Assembly: GCA_032691205.1 (NCBI GenBank)
Contig: GCA_032691205.1_4541.1
Source of the DNA: a phage
Direction: 5' to 3' (one strand)
DNA length: 64,000 nt
The translations under genes and the position numbers were made by a program. This document shows, piece after piece, positions 24,996 through 28,149 of the stretch. Every line of letters starts with the position of its first letter. Position 1 is the first letter of the stretch. The notes beneath the pieces were generated by a model. The model was not told the DNA's origin, did no database searches, and was given only the letters and a program-made list of their open reading frames with translations.

Positions 24996-25004
24996 TAAAA
25001 CTTA

Positions 25005-25027
25005 AAGGCGCACTTTGCGCCTTTTTT
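25005..25027 (+). terminator. rho-independent terminator
   Basis: AAGGCGC-ACTTT-GCGCCTT then TTTT. Confidence 0.6.
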
Positions 25028-25098: not shown

Positions 25099-25971
25099 AT
25101 GAAAGATTTGTACCAAGATGTTTTTTCTTTTTTAGATCGCACTTCAGAAACATACACTAGAGAGAATGCAAACAAACCTTCCCACCTTGTTAACACGCAC
25201 AGGGATCTCTTGGCGGGGATTTTAAGCAAACATATGGCAATGACACAGATACTGCCAAAAAACTTGTCAGAGTGGCATACAGAAGGTTTTGGACATATTC
25301 ACGACTTGGATTATCTGCTCTCTCCTCTTACAAACTGTTGTCTTGTTAATTATCAAGATATGTTAGAGAATGGTTTTAAGATCGGTGCTGCACAGATAGA
25401 AAAACCAAAATCTATTGGAGTAGCTACTACAGTGCTAACTCAAATCATCCAAGCTGTTGCCTCCAGTCAGTATGGAGGTCAGACGTGTGCTCACATTGAT
25501 AAAGGTCTTAGTCCTTATGTTGAAGCCAGTTTCCTTAAAAACATGGAGATAACCAAACGTCGCTACGGTTGTTATGCAAGGAAAGAAGCCCTAGAAATGA
25601 CCGAACAAGATGTATATGACGCTATGCAAACTCTCTTGTATCAGGTTAACACTTTAATGAGTGTTAATGGACAATCTCCTTTTATTACAATCAGTATGGG
25701 TCTGGATACCTCTGTTTTTGGCAGAATGATCACAGCTAACTATCTTAAAGTGCATAGTAACGGTCTAGGCAAAGATCATGTAACGCCTGTATTCCCTAAA
25801 GTTATTTTCTTTTTACAAGAAGGTGTTAACATGAAACCTAGTGATCCTAACTACGACCTTAAGCAACAAGCTTTGGCATGTTGTGCTGATCGTATTTATC
25901 CAGATTTTATTTCTGTTCCTTTGAACAAAGAAGTTACGGGATCAGCAGATGGTACCGTTACGAGTATGGGT
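25099..25971 (+). CDS. nrdD: anaerobic ribonucleoside-triphosphate reductase NrdD, exon 1
   Basis: NrdD-like N-terminus (ENANKPSHLVNTHRDLLAGILSKH, NCCLVNYQDMLENGFKIGAAQIEKPKSIGVAT); exon ends ...VTSMG at 25971. Confidence 0.75.
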
Positions 25972-26740
25972 AAACTATAACTGCTCATGTAAAATCTGCC
26001 TAAACGGGGGAACTCTCAACGAGACAATCCCGTGCTAAACGTAACAGAACTCCCAACACAGAAGAAGGGGGTACTGATATGAGAAAACAAATTCGTGATT
26101 TTGAAGGGTATGAAATTGACGAGCTTGGAAATGTTTATTGTACCAGGTATAAGGATGAAAGAATCCTTCGCTCGTGGGAAGAAATAAACACAGGATACCA
26201 ACTTGTCAGAATACGTAAAAACAAGAAAACTGTTTGCTTTCGGGTGCACAGACTTGTAGCTGAAGCGTTTTTACCCAATCCAGACAATTTACCTTATGTG
26301 AAGCATAAAGGTGACAATAGGAAAGACAACAGTGTATACAATCTTGAGTGGGGATCTTGTCCAGACAACACGCAAGAGGGTTACGATAATAACTGTTATG
26401 CTTTCTATACAAGGTGTCACAGTGTAAAAGCTACTCATAAGGCTACTGGTGAAGTTTTTTACTTTAAAAGTCTGAGATGTTGTGCTGACGCTTTAGGGTT
26501 GGACAGAAAAAGAATATCTGCAATCTTAAAGCGAGGAGCACCAAATAATTATGATTATGAGTTCTGTTACGAAATGCCTAACGACTAGCTGTGATGAATG
26601 TAGCAGCGTAGGGTGTAAGCCTATGACACCCCAAATGGTAGACATGCTTTAAGCATGAAGATATAGTCTGATCTGCATGGTGACATGCAGCAGCACGTAA
26701 TGGTGCGGGAGCGGCCTTGCGAGCCACTTTGAACATAATG
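25972..26740 (+). mobile_element. group I intron in nrdD carrying an HNH gene
   Basis: Exon 1 ends in U, intron ends in G (..CATAATG|TGT); joined exons read ..VTSMG|CRSFLSYY.. as one 604-aa NrdD. Confidence 0.65.
26079..26588 (+). CDS. HNH homing endonuclease (intron-encoded)
   Basis: 169 aa; VHRLVAEAFLPNPDNLPYVKHKGDNRKDNSVYNLEW; own RBS GAAGGGGG. Confidence 0.65.
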   Translation: MRKQIRDFEGYEIDELGNVYCTRYKDERILRSWEEINTGYQLVRIRKNKKTVCFRVHRLVAEAFLPNPDNLPYVKHKGDNRKDNSVYNLEWGSCPDNTQEGYDNNCYAFYTRCHSVKATHKATGEVFYFKSLRCCADALGLDRKRISAILKRGAPNNYDYEFCYEMPND

Positions 26741-27682
26741 TGTAGAAGTTTCTTGTCGTACTATGCCACCGAACAAGGAGAAAAATATGATGGACGATTC
26801 AACCTTGGAGTAGTTTCTATCAACTTGCCTCTGATTGCTGCGGAAGCGAGAAGTAAAGGAGAATCTTTCACCGATCTTCTTAATAAACATATGGAGATAG
26901 CCTACGATGCTCACATGTTACGTGTAAACCGTATCAGACATACCAAAGCATCGGAAAACCCTATTCTTTTCATGGAAGGGGCTTTAGCGCGTTTAAATGC
27001 CAACGATGAAATTGGTGCTTTGTTTGAAGGTGGTTATGCTTCTATTAGTATTGGTTATGTAGGTCTTGCCGAAGCTTTGGAAATCCTTTATCCAGAGGAA
27101 AAAGATAAAAAGGAACTAGGTAAAAACATTCTGCAACATATGAAAGATGTGTGTGCTGTGTTTAAAGAACGATCTAAGTTGGCATTTAGTCTTTATGGAA
27201 CTCCAGCAGAATCCTTGTGCTATAAATTTGCAACAGCTTTAAATGAAAAATATCCAGGTCTGGTAGAAAGAGACTATCTTACTAATTCTTTTCATCAACC
27301 TGTAGGGTTGGTAACAAATCCTTTTGAAAAATGGGATTATGAAGCAGGTTTTGCACAGATTAGCAATGGTGGTAACATAAGTTATGTCGAAACACCAAAC
27401 TTAAAGAATAACTTAGAAGCTTTGGAGACTTTAGTAGACTACGCTTATGAACATATTCACTATTTTGGTATTAATCAGCCCGTGGATCAATGCTTTAAGT
27501 GTGGTTTTCATGGAGAATTTAAGGCAACGGCTAAAGGGTTTGAGTGTCCTGATTGTGGCAACCATGAAGAAGAAACTATTTCTGTAGTTAGACGTGTATC
27601 AGGGTATCTTTCTGCCCCTAATTCACGGCCTTATAACAAAGGTAAAATGCAGGAAGTTTTGCAAAGGGAGAAACATCTTTGA
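26741..27682 (+). CDS. nrdD: anaerobic ribonucleoside-triphosphate reductase NrdD, exon 2
   Basis: C-terminal Zn ribbon CFKCGFHGEF...CPDCG and glycyl-radical motif RRVSGYLS. Confidence 0.75.
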   Translation, partial: CRSFLSYYATEQGEKYDGRFNLGVVSINLPLIAAEARSKGESFTDLLNKHMEIAYDAHMLRVNRIRHTKASENPILFMEGALARLNANDEIGALFEGGYASISIGYVGLAEALEILYPEEKDKKELGKNILQHMKDVCAVFKERSKLAFSLYGTPAESLCYKFATALNEKYPGLVERDYLTNSFHQPVGLVTNPFEKWDYEAGFAQISNGGNISYVETPNLKNNLEALETLVDYAYEHIHYFGINQPVDQCFKCGFHGEFKATAKGFECPDCGNHEEETISVVRRVSGYLSAPNSRPYNKGKMQEVLQREKHL

Positions 27683-28149
27683 ATTTTGCAGGATATGAAC
27701 CTGTAGATCTTATTAATGGTGAGGGAGTTAGGTGCTCCCTCTGGGTTAGTGGTTGTAGCCACGGTTGTCGTGGCTGTTTTAACCAGAAAGCCTGGTCTTA
27801 TTCTTATGGGAAACCGTTCACTAACGAAAATGTAGAGCAAGTTTTAAAAGATTTGTCAAGACCATTTGTAAAAGGTTTAACAATTTTAGGAGGAGAACCA
27901 TTAGATCCGCAGAATATTTACAATGTTAAAAACCTTATAGAAAAGGTTAGAGACGTTTATGGGTCAAGCAAAGATATAATGGTGTATACAGGATATACTT
28001 TTGAGGAAGTGCCTTTGTATATTAAAAATCTTGTTGACATTATTGTAGACGGAAAGTATGAAATAAACAATCCAACCACAAAACCTTTCAGAGGGTCAGA
28101 TAATCAAAGATTATGGACCAAAACGGCAAGTGGTTGGCAATCAGATTAA
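27679..28149 (+). CDS. nrdG: anaerobic ribonucleotide reductase activating protein NrdG
   Basis: GVRCSLWVSGCSHGCRGCFNQ radical-SAM motif; TTG start overlapping the nrdD stop. Confidence 0.8.
   Translation: MNFAGYEPVDLINGEGVRCSLWVSGCSHGCRGCFNQKAWSYSYGKPFTNENVEQVLKDLSRPFVKGLTILGGEPLDPQNIYNVKNLIEKVRDVYGSSKDIMVYTGYTFEEVPLYIKNLVDIIVDGKYEINNPTTKPFRGSDNQRLWTKTASGWQSD

Follow-up and report, generated by a model that had tools for sequence, protein, structure and literature searches.

The coding sequence of nrdD is interrupted by 769 nucleotides in a 64,000-nt stretch of phage DNA (NCBI GenBank assembly GCA_032691205.1, contig GCA_032691205.1_4541.1; hereafter the window), which raises the question of whether the insert is removed by RNA splicing, separates two NrdD polypeptides, or has inactivated the gene. 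A first-pass annotation, made from the letters alone, had proposed a group I intron carrying an HNH gene, and this proposal is supported by Rfam, covariation, empty sites in relatives, and an ORF resembling I-HmuI. We read positions 25972–26740 as a mobile group I intron, structurally of the IA2 type, that interrupts nrdD in a Phapecoctavirus (a myovirus of E. coli), with a probability of approximately 0.92, and we infer its splicing activity from sequence features.

The insert lies directly before the catalytic cysteine codon

25099–25971, + strand: nrdD exon 1, 291 codons ending in ...VTSMG, last base U25971; Pfam NRDD positions 1–263
26741–27682, + strand: nrdD exon 2, 313 codons plus stop, Cys292 first; Pfam NRDD positions 264–562 and Gly_radical
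27679–28149, + strand: nrdG (activating enzyme), Pfam Fer4_12 and Radical_SAM; context, outside the intron

In nrdD, the insert separates codon 291 (Gly) from codon 292 (Cys). As originally read, exon 1 ends on T25971, and the frame resumes at CRSFLSYY... with T26741, directly 3′ of G26740. The length of 769 nt, likewise proposed at that stage, proved exact by comparison with close relatives (ESCO13, phAPEC8, and others), whose uninterrupted nrdD is shorter by precisely this number: the gene spans 2584 nt here versus 1815 nt in the intron-less relatives (2584 − 769 = 1815). Moreover, the Pfam NRDD profile runs unbroken over the joint, with exon 1 reaching position 263 (Gly) and exon 2 starting from position 264 (Cys), so that the 3′ boundary at G26740 is fixed independently by the intron-less alleles and by the profile. 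The joined product has the 604 amino acids expected, with NRDD matches in both parts and the glycyl-radical domain encoded in exon 2, and, over its entire length, it aligns with T4 NrdD (PDB 1H78, E = 6e-168) without a gap at the junction. Cys292, the first codon of exon 2, corresponds to Cys290, the catalytic residue of T4 NrdD, and the break falls directly 5′ of this codon, within a conserved loop. Downstream, the TTG start of nrdG overlaps the nrdD stop codon. The exon 1 frame runs into the insert and meets a UAA stop at 25978–25980 after two intron codons, which led us to reject an intein.

A covarying group I core surrounds the HNH gene

25972–26740, + strand: group I intron (IA2-type), 769 nt with terminal G26740; empty-site alleles, RF00028, covariation
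25966–25988, + strand: P1, exon AUGGGU (25966–25971) with guide GCUCAU (25983–25988)
25995–26035, + strand: 5′ half of the core, comprising the P3 5′ strand (25995–26000), P4 (26004–26009/26028–26033), the P5 hairpin (26014–26024), and the P6 5′ strand GC (26034–26035)
26040–26047, + strand: P6a 5′ strand, CGUAACAG, forming a perfect 8-bp helix with 26564–26571
26564–26587, + strand: P6a 3′ strand (26564–26571), J6/7, P6 3′ strand GC (26576–26577), and P7 5′ strand GACUA (26583–26587)
26588–26631, + strand: P7.1 (26588–26607) and P7.2 (26611–26631), extra hairpins typical of IA2
26637–26690, + strand: P3 3′ strand (26637–26642), P8 (26644–26656), J8/7 and P7 3′ strand GAAGAUAUAGUC (26657–26668), and P9 (26673–26690), from the Rfam alignment to the RF00028 consensus
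26693–26740, + strand: P9.1 (26693–26706), P9.2 (26711–26727), and the 3′ tail to G26740

A search of the whole window against Rfam at the gathering threshold returned no match. In a permissive search, the group I model that the first-pass annotation had suggested consulting (RF00028, gathering score 50) matched the 3′ core of the intron with 39.3 bits (E = 2e-8); the score stays below the gathering value because the 510-nt ORF in the P6a loop splits the core. The ORF-less copy in phage phi92, which is 99.6% identical, scored 70.6 bits on the same model, a 78%-identical copy in phage 19-1-2 scored 79.8 bits, and the homologous T4 nrdD intron scored 105 bits. Folding, also suggested at the outset, allowed all core helices to be placed. 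The pseudoknot aside, the minimum-energy fold of the ORF-deleted RNA (z = −2.7) recovered all helices, including P3–P6a, P7.1, P7.2, P8, P9, and P9.1.

Covariation was quantified over 51 pairs in eight sequences. The proposed partners paired in 96.6% of cells, versus 31–45% when they were slid against each other, and 21 of the 51 pairs changed on both sides (0–7 in the slid controls); none of 500 shuffles attained this level of support. Because MAFFT misaligned P5, P6a, and P8, these helices were excluded from the formal count and inspected visually; all three differ compensatorily among the intron copies, with P6a appearing as CGGU/ACCG in 19-1-2, CAGC/GCUG in T4, and AAAGUAU/AUACUUU in Vibrio phage F94. 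The MAFFT alignment of P9.1 in F94 was also out of register. Compensatory changes among homologues were likewise present in P3 and P4, both of which were recovered by the energy fold. In P7.1 and P7.2, four of four and five of six pairs, respectively, changed on both sides (nine of ten overall), and these hairpins are homologous to those of the T4 nrdD intron. The note in the T4 record reads 'group 1A intron', and the T4 introns belong to subgroup IA2.

The elements surrounding the reaction sites are also in place. U25971 at the 5′ splice site forms a wobble pair with G25983 in P1, a helix that pairs in six of six homologues and reads AUGAGU/GCUCAU in the T4 nrdD intron. The segment GAAGAUAUAGUC aligns with high posterior probability to the Rfam consensus AAGAUAUAGUC of the guanosine-binding site, P7 consists of GACUA/UAGUC, with one U-A pair replaced by C-G through a double change in 19-1-2, and the terminal nucleotide of the intron, G26740, provides the omega-G. 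A candidate P10 would pair CUAUA (25975–25979) with UGUAG of exon 2 (26741–26745), although it comprises only 5 bp and is separated from P1 by a 3-nt gap; F94 has a stronger P10, GAUUGGCA/UGCCGAUC. A second UGUAG string is present in the P7.1 loop.

This core bears on whether the insert might remain in the mRNA, with NrdD assembling from polypeptides of 293 aa (25099–25980) and 321 aa (from TTG 26717). GenBank entries for nieznany, VEcB, and others do indeed annotate two NrdD CDSs, the second of which is begun by annotators at the in-frame TTG 26717. Preceded by GGGAG, this codon could in principle serve as the start of a separate C-terminal fragment. A precedent exists in Aeromonas phage Aeh1, where another ribonucleotide reductase gene, nrdA, is broken by an HNH endonuclease gene, mobE, and is likewise annotated as two CDSs; there, no ribozyme is present and the two polypeptides assemble (PMC3653736). 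Unlike in Aeh1, the ORF here is flanked by a group I core that is complete, backed by covariation, and situated between the two nrdD halves. In addition, TTG 26717 falls in the P9.2 loop with its GGGAG within or adjoining the P9.2 hairpin, and the break directly before the catalytic codon, inside a conserved loop, also argues against separate translation. The first-pass annotation had considered two separately translated halves less likely on the grounds that no in-frame ATG with a ribosome-binding site precedes exon 2. This argument was wrong in detail, given that ATG 26738–26740 (without a Shine–Dalgarno sequence) and TTG 26717 (with GGGAG) are both available; since in-frame starts precede exon 2, their supposed absence is no ground for rejecting two polypeptides. 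The conclusion nevertheless holds on the evidence of the group I core, and we regard translation in two pieces as extremely improbable.

An HNH gene in the P6a loop and the footprint of its transfer

26079–26588, + strand: 169-aa ORF for a putative HNH homing endonuclease of the I-HmuI type, within the P6a loop; PDB 1U3E, PHROG 59
26049–26072, + strand: hairpin ACUCCC...GGGGGU over the HNH Shine–Dalgarno sequence; predicted fold −11.9 kcal/mol

The product of the ORF matched PHROG 59 HNH endonucleases (E = 2e-34) and I-HmuI (PDB 1U3E, E = 8e-9), with residues 3–166 of 169 aligned against 4–172. The Pfam matches fell slightly short of their cut-offs, with 22.0 bits for HNH_3 (cut-off 24.8) and 25.4 bits for the I-HmuI NUMOD-like family PF22083 (cut-off 27). 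The catalytic motif H76...N84...N88 lies in VKHKGDNRKDNSVYNLEW, aligned to VDHKDGNKDNNLSTNLRW of I-HmuI; the residue preceding the catalytic His is Lys here and Asp in I-HmuI. The two proteins resemble each other in architecture and length, with an N-terminal HNH part and, in the present protein, a putative C-terminal NUMOD/helix-turn-helix-like DNA-binding part, and I-HmuI is likewise intron-encoded in a phage gene of nucleotide/DNA metabolism; they differ in host gene, target sequence, and phage group, and their sequence identity is low. A mir-553 match within the ORF (E = 2.3) was weak and was dismissed as chance.

The ORF had initially been described as free-standing with its own ribosome-binding site. 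The second part of this description stands, an AGGGGG Shine–Dalgarno sequence being located approximately 7 nt upstream, whereas the first does not, because the P6a loop contains the ORF, whose 3′ end extends into the ribozyme core: the last eight codons double as P6a, J6/7, and P7, and the UAG stop (26586–26588) overlaps P7 and P7.1. The same 24 nt (26564–26587) are retained in the ORF-less phi92 intron, and the C-terminal EMPND is invariant across all HNH copies. The hairpin at 26049–26072 is predicted to sequester the Shine–Dalgarno sequence. Its pairing is maintained by the compensatory ACUCCU/AGGAGU in the rV5-like A142 copy, and F94 carries a longer hairpin over its own Shine–Dalgarno sequence; the same device has been described for the T4 intron endonucleases (PMC2988022).

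Subsequently, the distribution of the intron among phages was compared with that of the surrounding exons. Only four phapecoctaviruses, a small minority, carry it (nieznany, nepoznato, DIJ07P2, and 536P1; six records), and most relatives with 98–99.5% identical exons have an uninterrupted 1815-nt nrdD. Eleven records, spread over two genera, carry the intron with 99.2–99.5% identity; for that of Justusliebigvirus VEcB, the value is 99.5%, compared with only about 83% for the exons. Phage phi92, also a Justusliebigvirus with exons only about 83% identical, has the same insertion site, ATGGGT^TGTAGA (^ marks the insertion point), and a ribozyme 99.6% identical over the 279 shared nucleotides. 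Its intron is without the HNH ORF, 490 nt having been deleted from the P6a loop with the last eight codons left, and its GenBank record (FR775895) annotates a 'spliced variant', gp192A, across it.

These comparisons also address whether the element is a former group I intron that has lost splicing, leaving nrdD a pseudogene in this phage. Such decay could explain a single C-A mismatch in P9.2, where U in place of C26712 restores the pair in phi92, as well as the subthreshold Rfam score of the window copy, and aerobic growth in the laboratory does not require nrdD. The Rfam score, however, is accounted for by the ORF in the P6a loop, ORF-less copies reaching 70–80 bits, and the P1 and P3–P9 core pairs are all intact. 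Near-identity of the intron across two genera likewise argues against decay, as do the exons, which differ from the uninterrupted nrdD of ESCO13 at only 14 of 1815 positions and keep their reading frames intact. We therefore consider a decayed intron very unlikely.

The positions of the exon differences revealed a recombination footprint. Relative to ESCO13, exon 1 has four scattered differences, and six of the ten in exon 2 cluster between +4 and +12 and are of the phi92/VEcB type. Only this patch (26744–26752) is donor-type; the sequence from +18 onward and from −7 upstream is recipient-type. Where every intron-plus allele from E. coli phages has AGA, CGN is present in the intron-less alleles of four genera, and the ESCO13-type intron-less site reads ...ATGGGT^TGTCGTTCCTTT.... 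In all intron-plus alleles of E. coli phages, exon 2 opens with an invariant UGUAGAAGUUUC, which may have been selected for P10 pairing or endonuclease resistance, and not merely carried along. If the exon 2 patch TGTAGAAGTTTC confers immunity, it is predicted to reduce cutting by the endonuclease. The nick made by I-HmuI lies on the template strand, 3 nt inside exon 2 (PMC3428280), which fits a donor patch confined to exon 2 in our case. Endonuclease activity of the HNH protein is proposed, as is its cleavage position, the latter by analogy with I-HmuI. Collectively, a near-identical intron and ORF in 83%-identical exons, accompanied by a short donor-type exon patch, has the appearance of a homing footprint.

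Alternatively, the intron may splice while the HNH protein does not, or does not only, act in homing, being an inactive remnant or a weapon against co-infecting related phages. An intron endonuclease of phage PhiPA3 is reported to damage co-infecting relatives (PMC11620839), and the Lys for Asp beside the catalytic His, the subthreshold HNH_3 score, and the persistence of ORF-less intron copies in phi92-like phages would all suit this idea. However, the ORF is under strong purifying selection (dN/dS = 0.037 versus the rV5-like copy), and the transfer pattern, including the exon patch, is that which homing leaves. On balance, we consider a role other than homing unlikely, and homing the preferred function.

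Relation to the T4 nrdD intron and a model for splicing and homing

The T4 nrdD (sunY) intron interrupts the same host gene with a homologous ribozyme, approximately 70% identical over ORF-less intron positions 12–230. Its guide, GCUCAU, is identical to that in the window, and its 5′ exon target, AUGAGU, is similar to AUGGGU here. We rejected a common insertion site, given that the T4 intron follows approximately codon 180, whereas the present one follows codon 291, and T4 nrdD is uninterrupted at PMG^CRSF, its unoccupied site being CCGATGGGT^TGCCGTAGTTTC. The endonucleases are unrelated: I-TevII of T4 is a GIY-YIG enzyme encoded 3′ of P9, and the HNH enzyme here is encoded in the P6a loop. 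A tentative scenario, which we hold to be possible but doubtful, is that the two are sister ribozymes at two AUGRGU sites of one gene, the site having moved by guide complementarity via reverse splicing or a similar RNA-guided step, after which a different endonuclease gene would have been gained and now drives homing there. In our literature search, no account of this intron was found for Phapecoctavirus or rV5-like phages, and the terminase introns are the only introns mentioned in the rV5 paper.

In the model that we propose, transcription of nrdD would run through the intron, and ribosomes would halt at the UAA two codons into it. The RNA would fold as P1–P9 plus P7.1, P7.2, P9.1, and P9.2, and a guanosine bound in P7 would attack after U25971, held in P1 by the guide GCUCAU. 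Freed exon 1 would then attack after the terminal G26740, joining ...VTSMG to CRSF... in a 604-aa NrdD. The predicted ligated junction is ...AUGGGU^UGUAGA..., and the longer sequence expected from splicing is ...GAGUAUGGGU^UGUAGAAGUU. During mixed infections, the HNH enzyme would most likely nick or cut intron-less nrdD near the insertion site, presumably a few nucleotides into exon 2 on the template strand by analogy with I-HmuI, and recombinational repair would give the recipient the intron together with roughly a dozen nucleotides of exon 2.

The ribozyme and endonuclease types of this phage nrdD intron are already known, and it constitutes one more example of them. Its recognition has value for annotation, given that what the records of nieznany, nepoznato, VEcB, and rV5-like phages split into two 'NrdD' fragments and a hypothetical protein is one intact gene for a 604-aa enzyme plus a mobile intron. 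Several textbook features are clean at this locus, namely, the insertion before the catalytic Cys codon, an ORF whose 3′ end doubles as ribozyme core, and a covarying hairpin at the ribosome-binding site. Furthermore, the co-conversion tract of ≤17 nt marks the transfer between phage genera as recent. The link to the T4 intron gives a modest lead on site switching by phage introns and, if the sister-ribozyme scenario were true, would provide a clear phage example of a ribozyme relocating to a site chosen by its guide.

Exon structure and boundaries of the nrdD insert

The nrdD region (25099-27682) matched Escherichia phage nieznany (MN850598, Phapecoctavirus) at 99.1% identity over its full length, and nepoznato, DIJ07P2 and 536P1 at 98-99%; the nieznany GenBank record shows a hypothetical protein here, flanked by two 'NrdD' CDSs. 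The first-pass annotation placed the end of exon 1 at ...VTSMG on a U and the return of the frame at CRSFLSYY after a G, and both ends were confirmed: exon 1 spans 25099-25971 (last base T25971), and exon 2 starts at 26741, preceded by G26740. The joined product has the expected 604 aa and aligns over its full length with T4 NrdD (605 aa; PDB 1H78, E=6e-168), gapless at ...SMG/CRSF..., and the Pfam NRDD profile runs through position 263 (Gly) in exon 1 and from position 264 (Cys) in exon 2. In the alignment, this first exon 2 codon is the equivalent of T4 Cys290, the thiyl-radical cysteine of the finger loop in class III reductases. Unspliced, the exon 1 frame terminates at UAA 25978-25980, two codons inside the insert.

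Many phapecoctaviruses are intron-less; these, including ESCO13, ESCO5, phAPEC8_ev052 and Schickermooser, matched the region in two pieces (98-99.5%) with a genome span of 1815 nt, which is shorter than the 2584 nt of the window by exactly the 769 nt of the insert. The same stretch is annotated in ESCO13 as a single 1815-nt nrdD CDS, and alignment gives the empty site as ...ATGGGT/TGT.... Judged from these alignments, the insert boundaries are exact and independently fixed.

Three further features of the locus were observed. At window 27305 (exon 2 nt 565), GTAGGG (Val-Gly) replaces the GTATGG or GTGTGG (Val-Trp) of ESCO13, phi92 and VEcB, a non-synonymous change in the motif HQPVW(L/M) whose Trp is conserved among these phages and not in T4. 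A terminator-like hairpin, AAAGGCGCACTTTGCGCCTTTTTT, lies at 25003-25026 between an upstream 471-aa ORF and nrdD. Downstream, nrdG starts at a TTG that shares bases with the nrdD TGA stop (TTGA, 27679-27682), which suggests translational coupling.

The ribozyme core

Rfam gave no match in the window at gathering scores; a permissive search found RF00028 at 26583-26690 (39.3 bits, E=2e-8), with no second RF00028 match in the whole 64 kb. The sub-threshold score is explained by the 510-nt ORF, which interrupts the core. An ORF-less copy of the intron in phage phi92 (99.6% identity over 279 nt) reached 70.6 bits, above the gathering score of 50. Scores were 79.8 bits for the ORF-less copy of phage 19-1-2 (78% identical) and 105 bits for the T4 nrdD intron. 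In the window, the conserved J8/7-P7 sequence GAAGAUAUAGUC and P9 align with the RF00028 consensus. A two-piece 'spliced variant' CDS, gp192A, is annotated across the intron in the phi92 GenBank record; related genomes in public databases already contain the intron, with partial annotation.

Secondary-structure elements of the insert (window coordinates, strand as given)
P1: 25966-25971 with 25983-25988; exon AUGGGU and guide GCUCAU, U25971-G25983 wobble at the 5′ splice site
P3: 25995-26000 with 26637-26642
P4: 26004-26009 with 26028-26033
P5: 26014-26024; hairpin
P6: 26034-26035 with 26576-26577; GC/GC
P6a: 26040-26047 with 26564-26571; CGUAACAG/CUGUUACG
HNH ORF: 26079-26588
P7: 26583-26587 with 26664-26668; GACUA/UAGUC, pseudoknot with P3
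P7.1: 26588-26607
P7.2: 26611-26631
P8: 26644-26656
P9: 26673-26690
P9.1: 26693-26706
P9.2: 26711-26727; one C-A mismatch in the window copy
Terminal G: 26740
Possible P10, 5 bp: CUAUA 25975-25979 with exon 2 UGUAG 26741-26745

The presence of both P7.1 and P7.2 is the hallmark of subgroup IA2, to which the T4 introns belong. Folding had also been proposed as a check, and an energy fold of the ORF-deleted RNA (z=-2.7) recovered P3-P6a, P7.1, P7.2, P8, P9 and P9.1. Covariation was assessed in eight homologues (window, phi92, 19-1-2, rV5-like A142, Vibrio phage F94, T4 and two Aeromonas phage PhAER-4 cores) over the 51 pairs kept in register by MAFFT, with 3′ partners slid by 1-3 columns as the control. 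Pairing was 96.6%, against 31-45% in the slid controls; 21 pairs changed on both sides, against 0-7, and none of 500 shuffles matched the observed covariation values. P7 changes from U-A to C-G in 19-1-2, P3 from UCUGCC/GGUAGA to CAUCCU/GGGAUG in F94, and P7.1 occurs as GCUG/CAGC, AUCC/GGAU, ACCG/CGGU, UCCC/GGGA and CCUG/CAGG. Compensatory differences between copies also occur in P5, P8 and P6a, the last as CGGU/ACCG (19-1-2), CAGC/GCUG (T4) and AAAGUAU/AUACUUU (F94).

Two separately translated NrdD halves had been called less likely earlier, for want of an in-frame ATG with an RBS before exon 2. That ground does not suffice, since an in-frame ATG (26738) and a TTG (26717, with GGGAG upstream) are present, and annotators do start the exon 2 CDS at this TTG: the nieznany, nepoznato and VEcB records give the equivalent of window 26717-27682 as a separate CDS. 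However, the TTG lies in the loop of hairpin P9.2, and GGGAG beside this hairpin, in a complete, covarying ribozyme, making unspliced halves very unlikely. An intron that has decayed and lost splicing is unlikely, as every core pair is intact and the reading frames are kept in both exons.

The HNH gene and intron mobility

The 169-aa ORF matched I-HmuI over its full length (PDB 1U3E, E=8e-9, residues 3-166 versus 4-172) and PHROG 59 'HNH endonuclease' (E=2e-34); Pfam HNH_3 and the I-HmuI NUMOD-like domain both matched just below curated cut-offs. I-HmuI is an HNH nicking enzyme that belongs to the intron in the SPO1 DNA polymerase gene. In the motif VKH76KGDNRKDN84SVYN88LEW, the residue preceding the catalytic-motif His is Lys, whereas I-HmuI has Asp. 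Against the 85%-identical rV5-like copy (dN=0.046, dS=1.26, dN/dS=0.037), the gene is under strong purifying selection. The nieznany, nepoznato and VEcB records label it 'hypothetical protein' and leave the intron unannotated.

The gene had been described as free-standing with its own RBS; the RBS (AGGGGG) stands, but the ORF is located in the P6a loop. Its last eight codons (FCYEMPND) and UAG double as the P6a 3′ strand, J6/7, the P6 3′ strand and the P7 5′ strand; EMPND is invariant across all HNH copies, and the ORF-less phi92 intron retains exactly those 24 nt. The Shine-Dalgarno sequence (26066-26071) is paired within a hairpin, ACUCCC...GGGGGU (26049-26072, predicted -11.9 kcal/mol in context), of which it makes up the 3′ arm; the rV5-like copy has compensatory changes (ACUCCU/AGGAGU), and F94 has a longer hairpin in its place. 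Ribosome-binding-site sequestration is a known control of T4 intron endonucleases (PMC2988022).

Intron and ORF are 99.2-99.5% identical in 11 records, six from phapecoctaviruses (nieznany ×2, nepoznato ×2, DIJ07P2, 536P1) and five others (VEcB ×2, confirmed Justusliebigvirus; arall, phiWec187 and SD2, VEcB-like by exon identity), while VEcB-like exons are only ~83% identical to those of the window. The intron of rV5-like vequintaviruses is ~85% identical, and only a small minority of phapecoctaviruses have the site occupied. This E. coli-phage intron also occurs, within rV5-like or phi92-like nrdD, in about 20 records (MG065639-MG065690) that name Campylobacter jejuni phages; one of them, 'UNVERIFIED: Campylobacter phage A142', is classified Vequintavirus, and the Campylobacter host labels look unreliable.

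Of the 1815 exon positions, 14 distinguish the window from intron-less ESCO13: four are spread over exon 1, six lie at exon 2 +4 to +12 and four are scattered farther on. The cluster (TGT AGA AGT TTC versus TGT CGT TCC TTT in ESCO13) is entirely synonymous and agrees with phi92 and VEcB; since the bases at +18 and -7 are ESCO13-like, the donor-type tract extends no more than 17 nt into exon 2 and less than 7 nt into exon 1. In the intron-less alleles of ESCO13, EC.P2, rV5 and SSE121/EspYZU12, which represent four genera, the arginine codon here is always CGN, whereas intron-plus E. coli-phage alleles all carry identical TGTAGAAGTTTC. A patch of this kind is expected when homing co-converts only a very short stretch, limited to exon 2. 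The template-strand nick made by I-HmuI falls 3 nt into exon 2 (PMC3428280), and an exon-2-only patch fits an I-HmuI-like enzyme. Selection for splicing could contribute, because A at +4 adds one P10 pair. The HNH protein may be inactive or have a role beyond homing. RF00028 matches, covariation and empty sites bear out the reading of a group I intron with an HNH gene splitting nrdD; on this comparative evidence, the insert is a genuine IA2 intron, well formed and recently mobile, that carries an I-HmuI-like HNH gene; splicing and cleavage are predicted.

Relation to other phage nrdD introns

Other phages have more complex nrdD loci. PhAER-4 (PQ495741) has tandem group I cores (1326-1533 and 1585-1864; Rfam 45.8 and 90.5 bits) flanked by two ORFs annotated just 'hypothetical proteins', with an upstream exon end, ...AAGATGGGT, resembling the window's nrdD site; the tandem pair may represent a twintron or double intron that shares the nrdD position of the window intron. 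In 19-1-2 (OK181860) and F94 (OZ196422), nrdD is annotated in at least three pieces, which suggests further introns or frameshifts. The 19-1-2 record has a second nrdD gap of ~360 nt (1941-2301), and Rfam found no second match in it at E<0.001; F94 (1-686 and 2605-2606) has another HNH gene upstream of a short NrdD-like exon.

The T4 nrdD (sunY) intron encodes the GIY-YIG enzyme I-TevII 3′ of P9 and is inserted after ~codon 180, whereas the window intron has its HNH ORF in the P6a loop and is inserted after codon 291; T4 is uninterrupted at this position, where it reads PMG/CRSF. Nevertheless, the ribozymes are homologous (~70% identity over ORF-less intron positions 12-230), with an identical guide-through-P3 sequence, GCUCAUGUAAAAUCUGCC, and similar 5′ exon targets (T4 AUGAGU, window AUGGGU). 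By this homology, the window and T4 introns are sisters that occupy different sites in nrdD and carry different endonucleases, and the change of site may have occurred through RNA-guided reverse splicing. T4 nrdD has an empty copy of the window's insertion site, CCGATGGGT/TGCCGTAGTTTC; the T4 empty site, CCGATGGGT/TGCCGTAGTTTCTTG, is nearly identical to the intron-less Justusliebigvirus allele. T4-like phages thus look like potential recipients of the intron.
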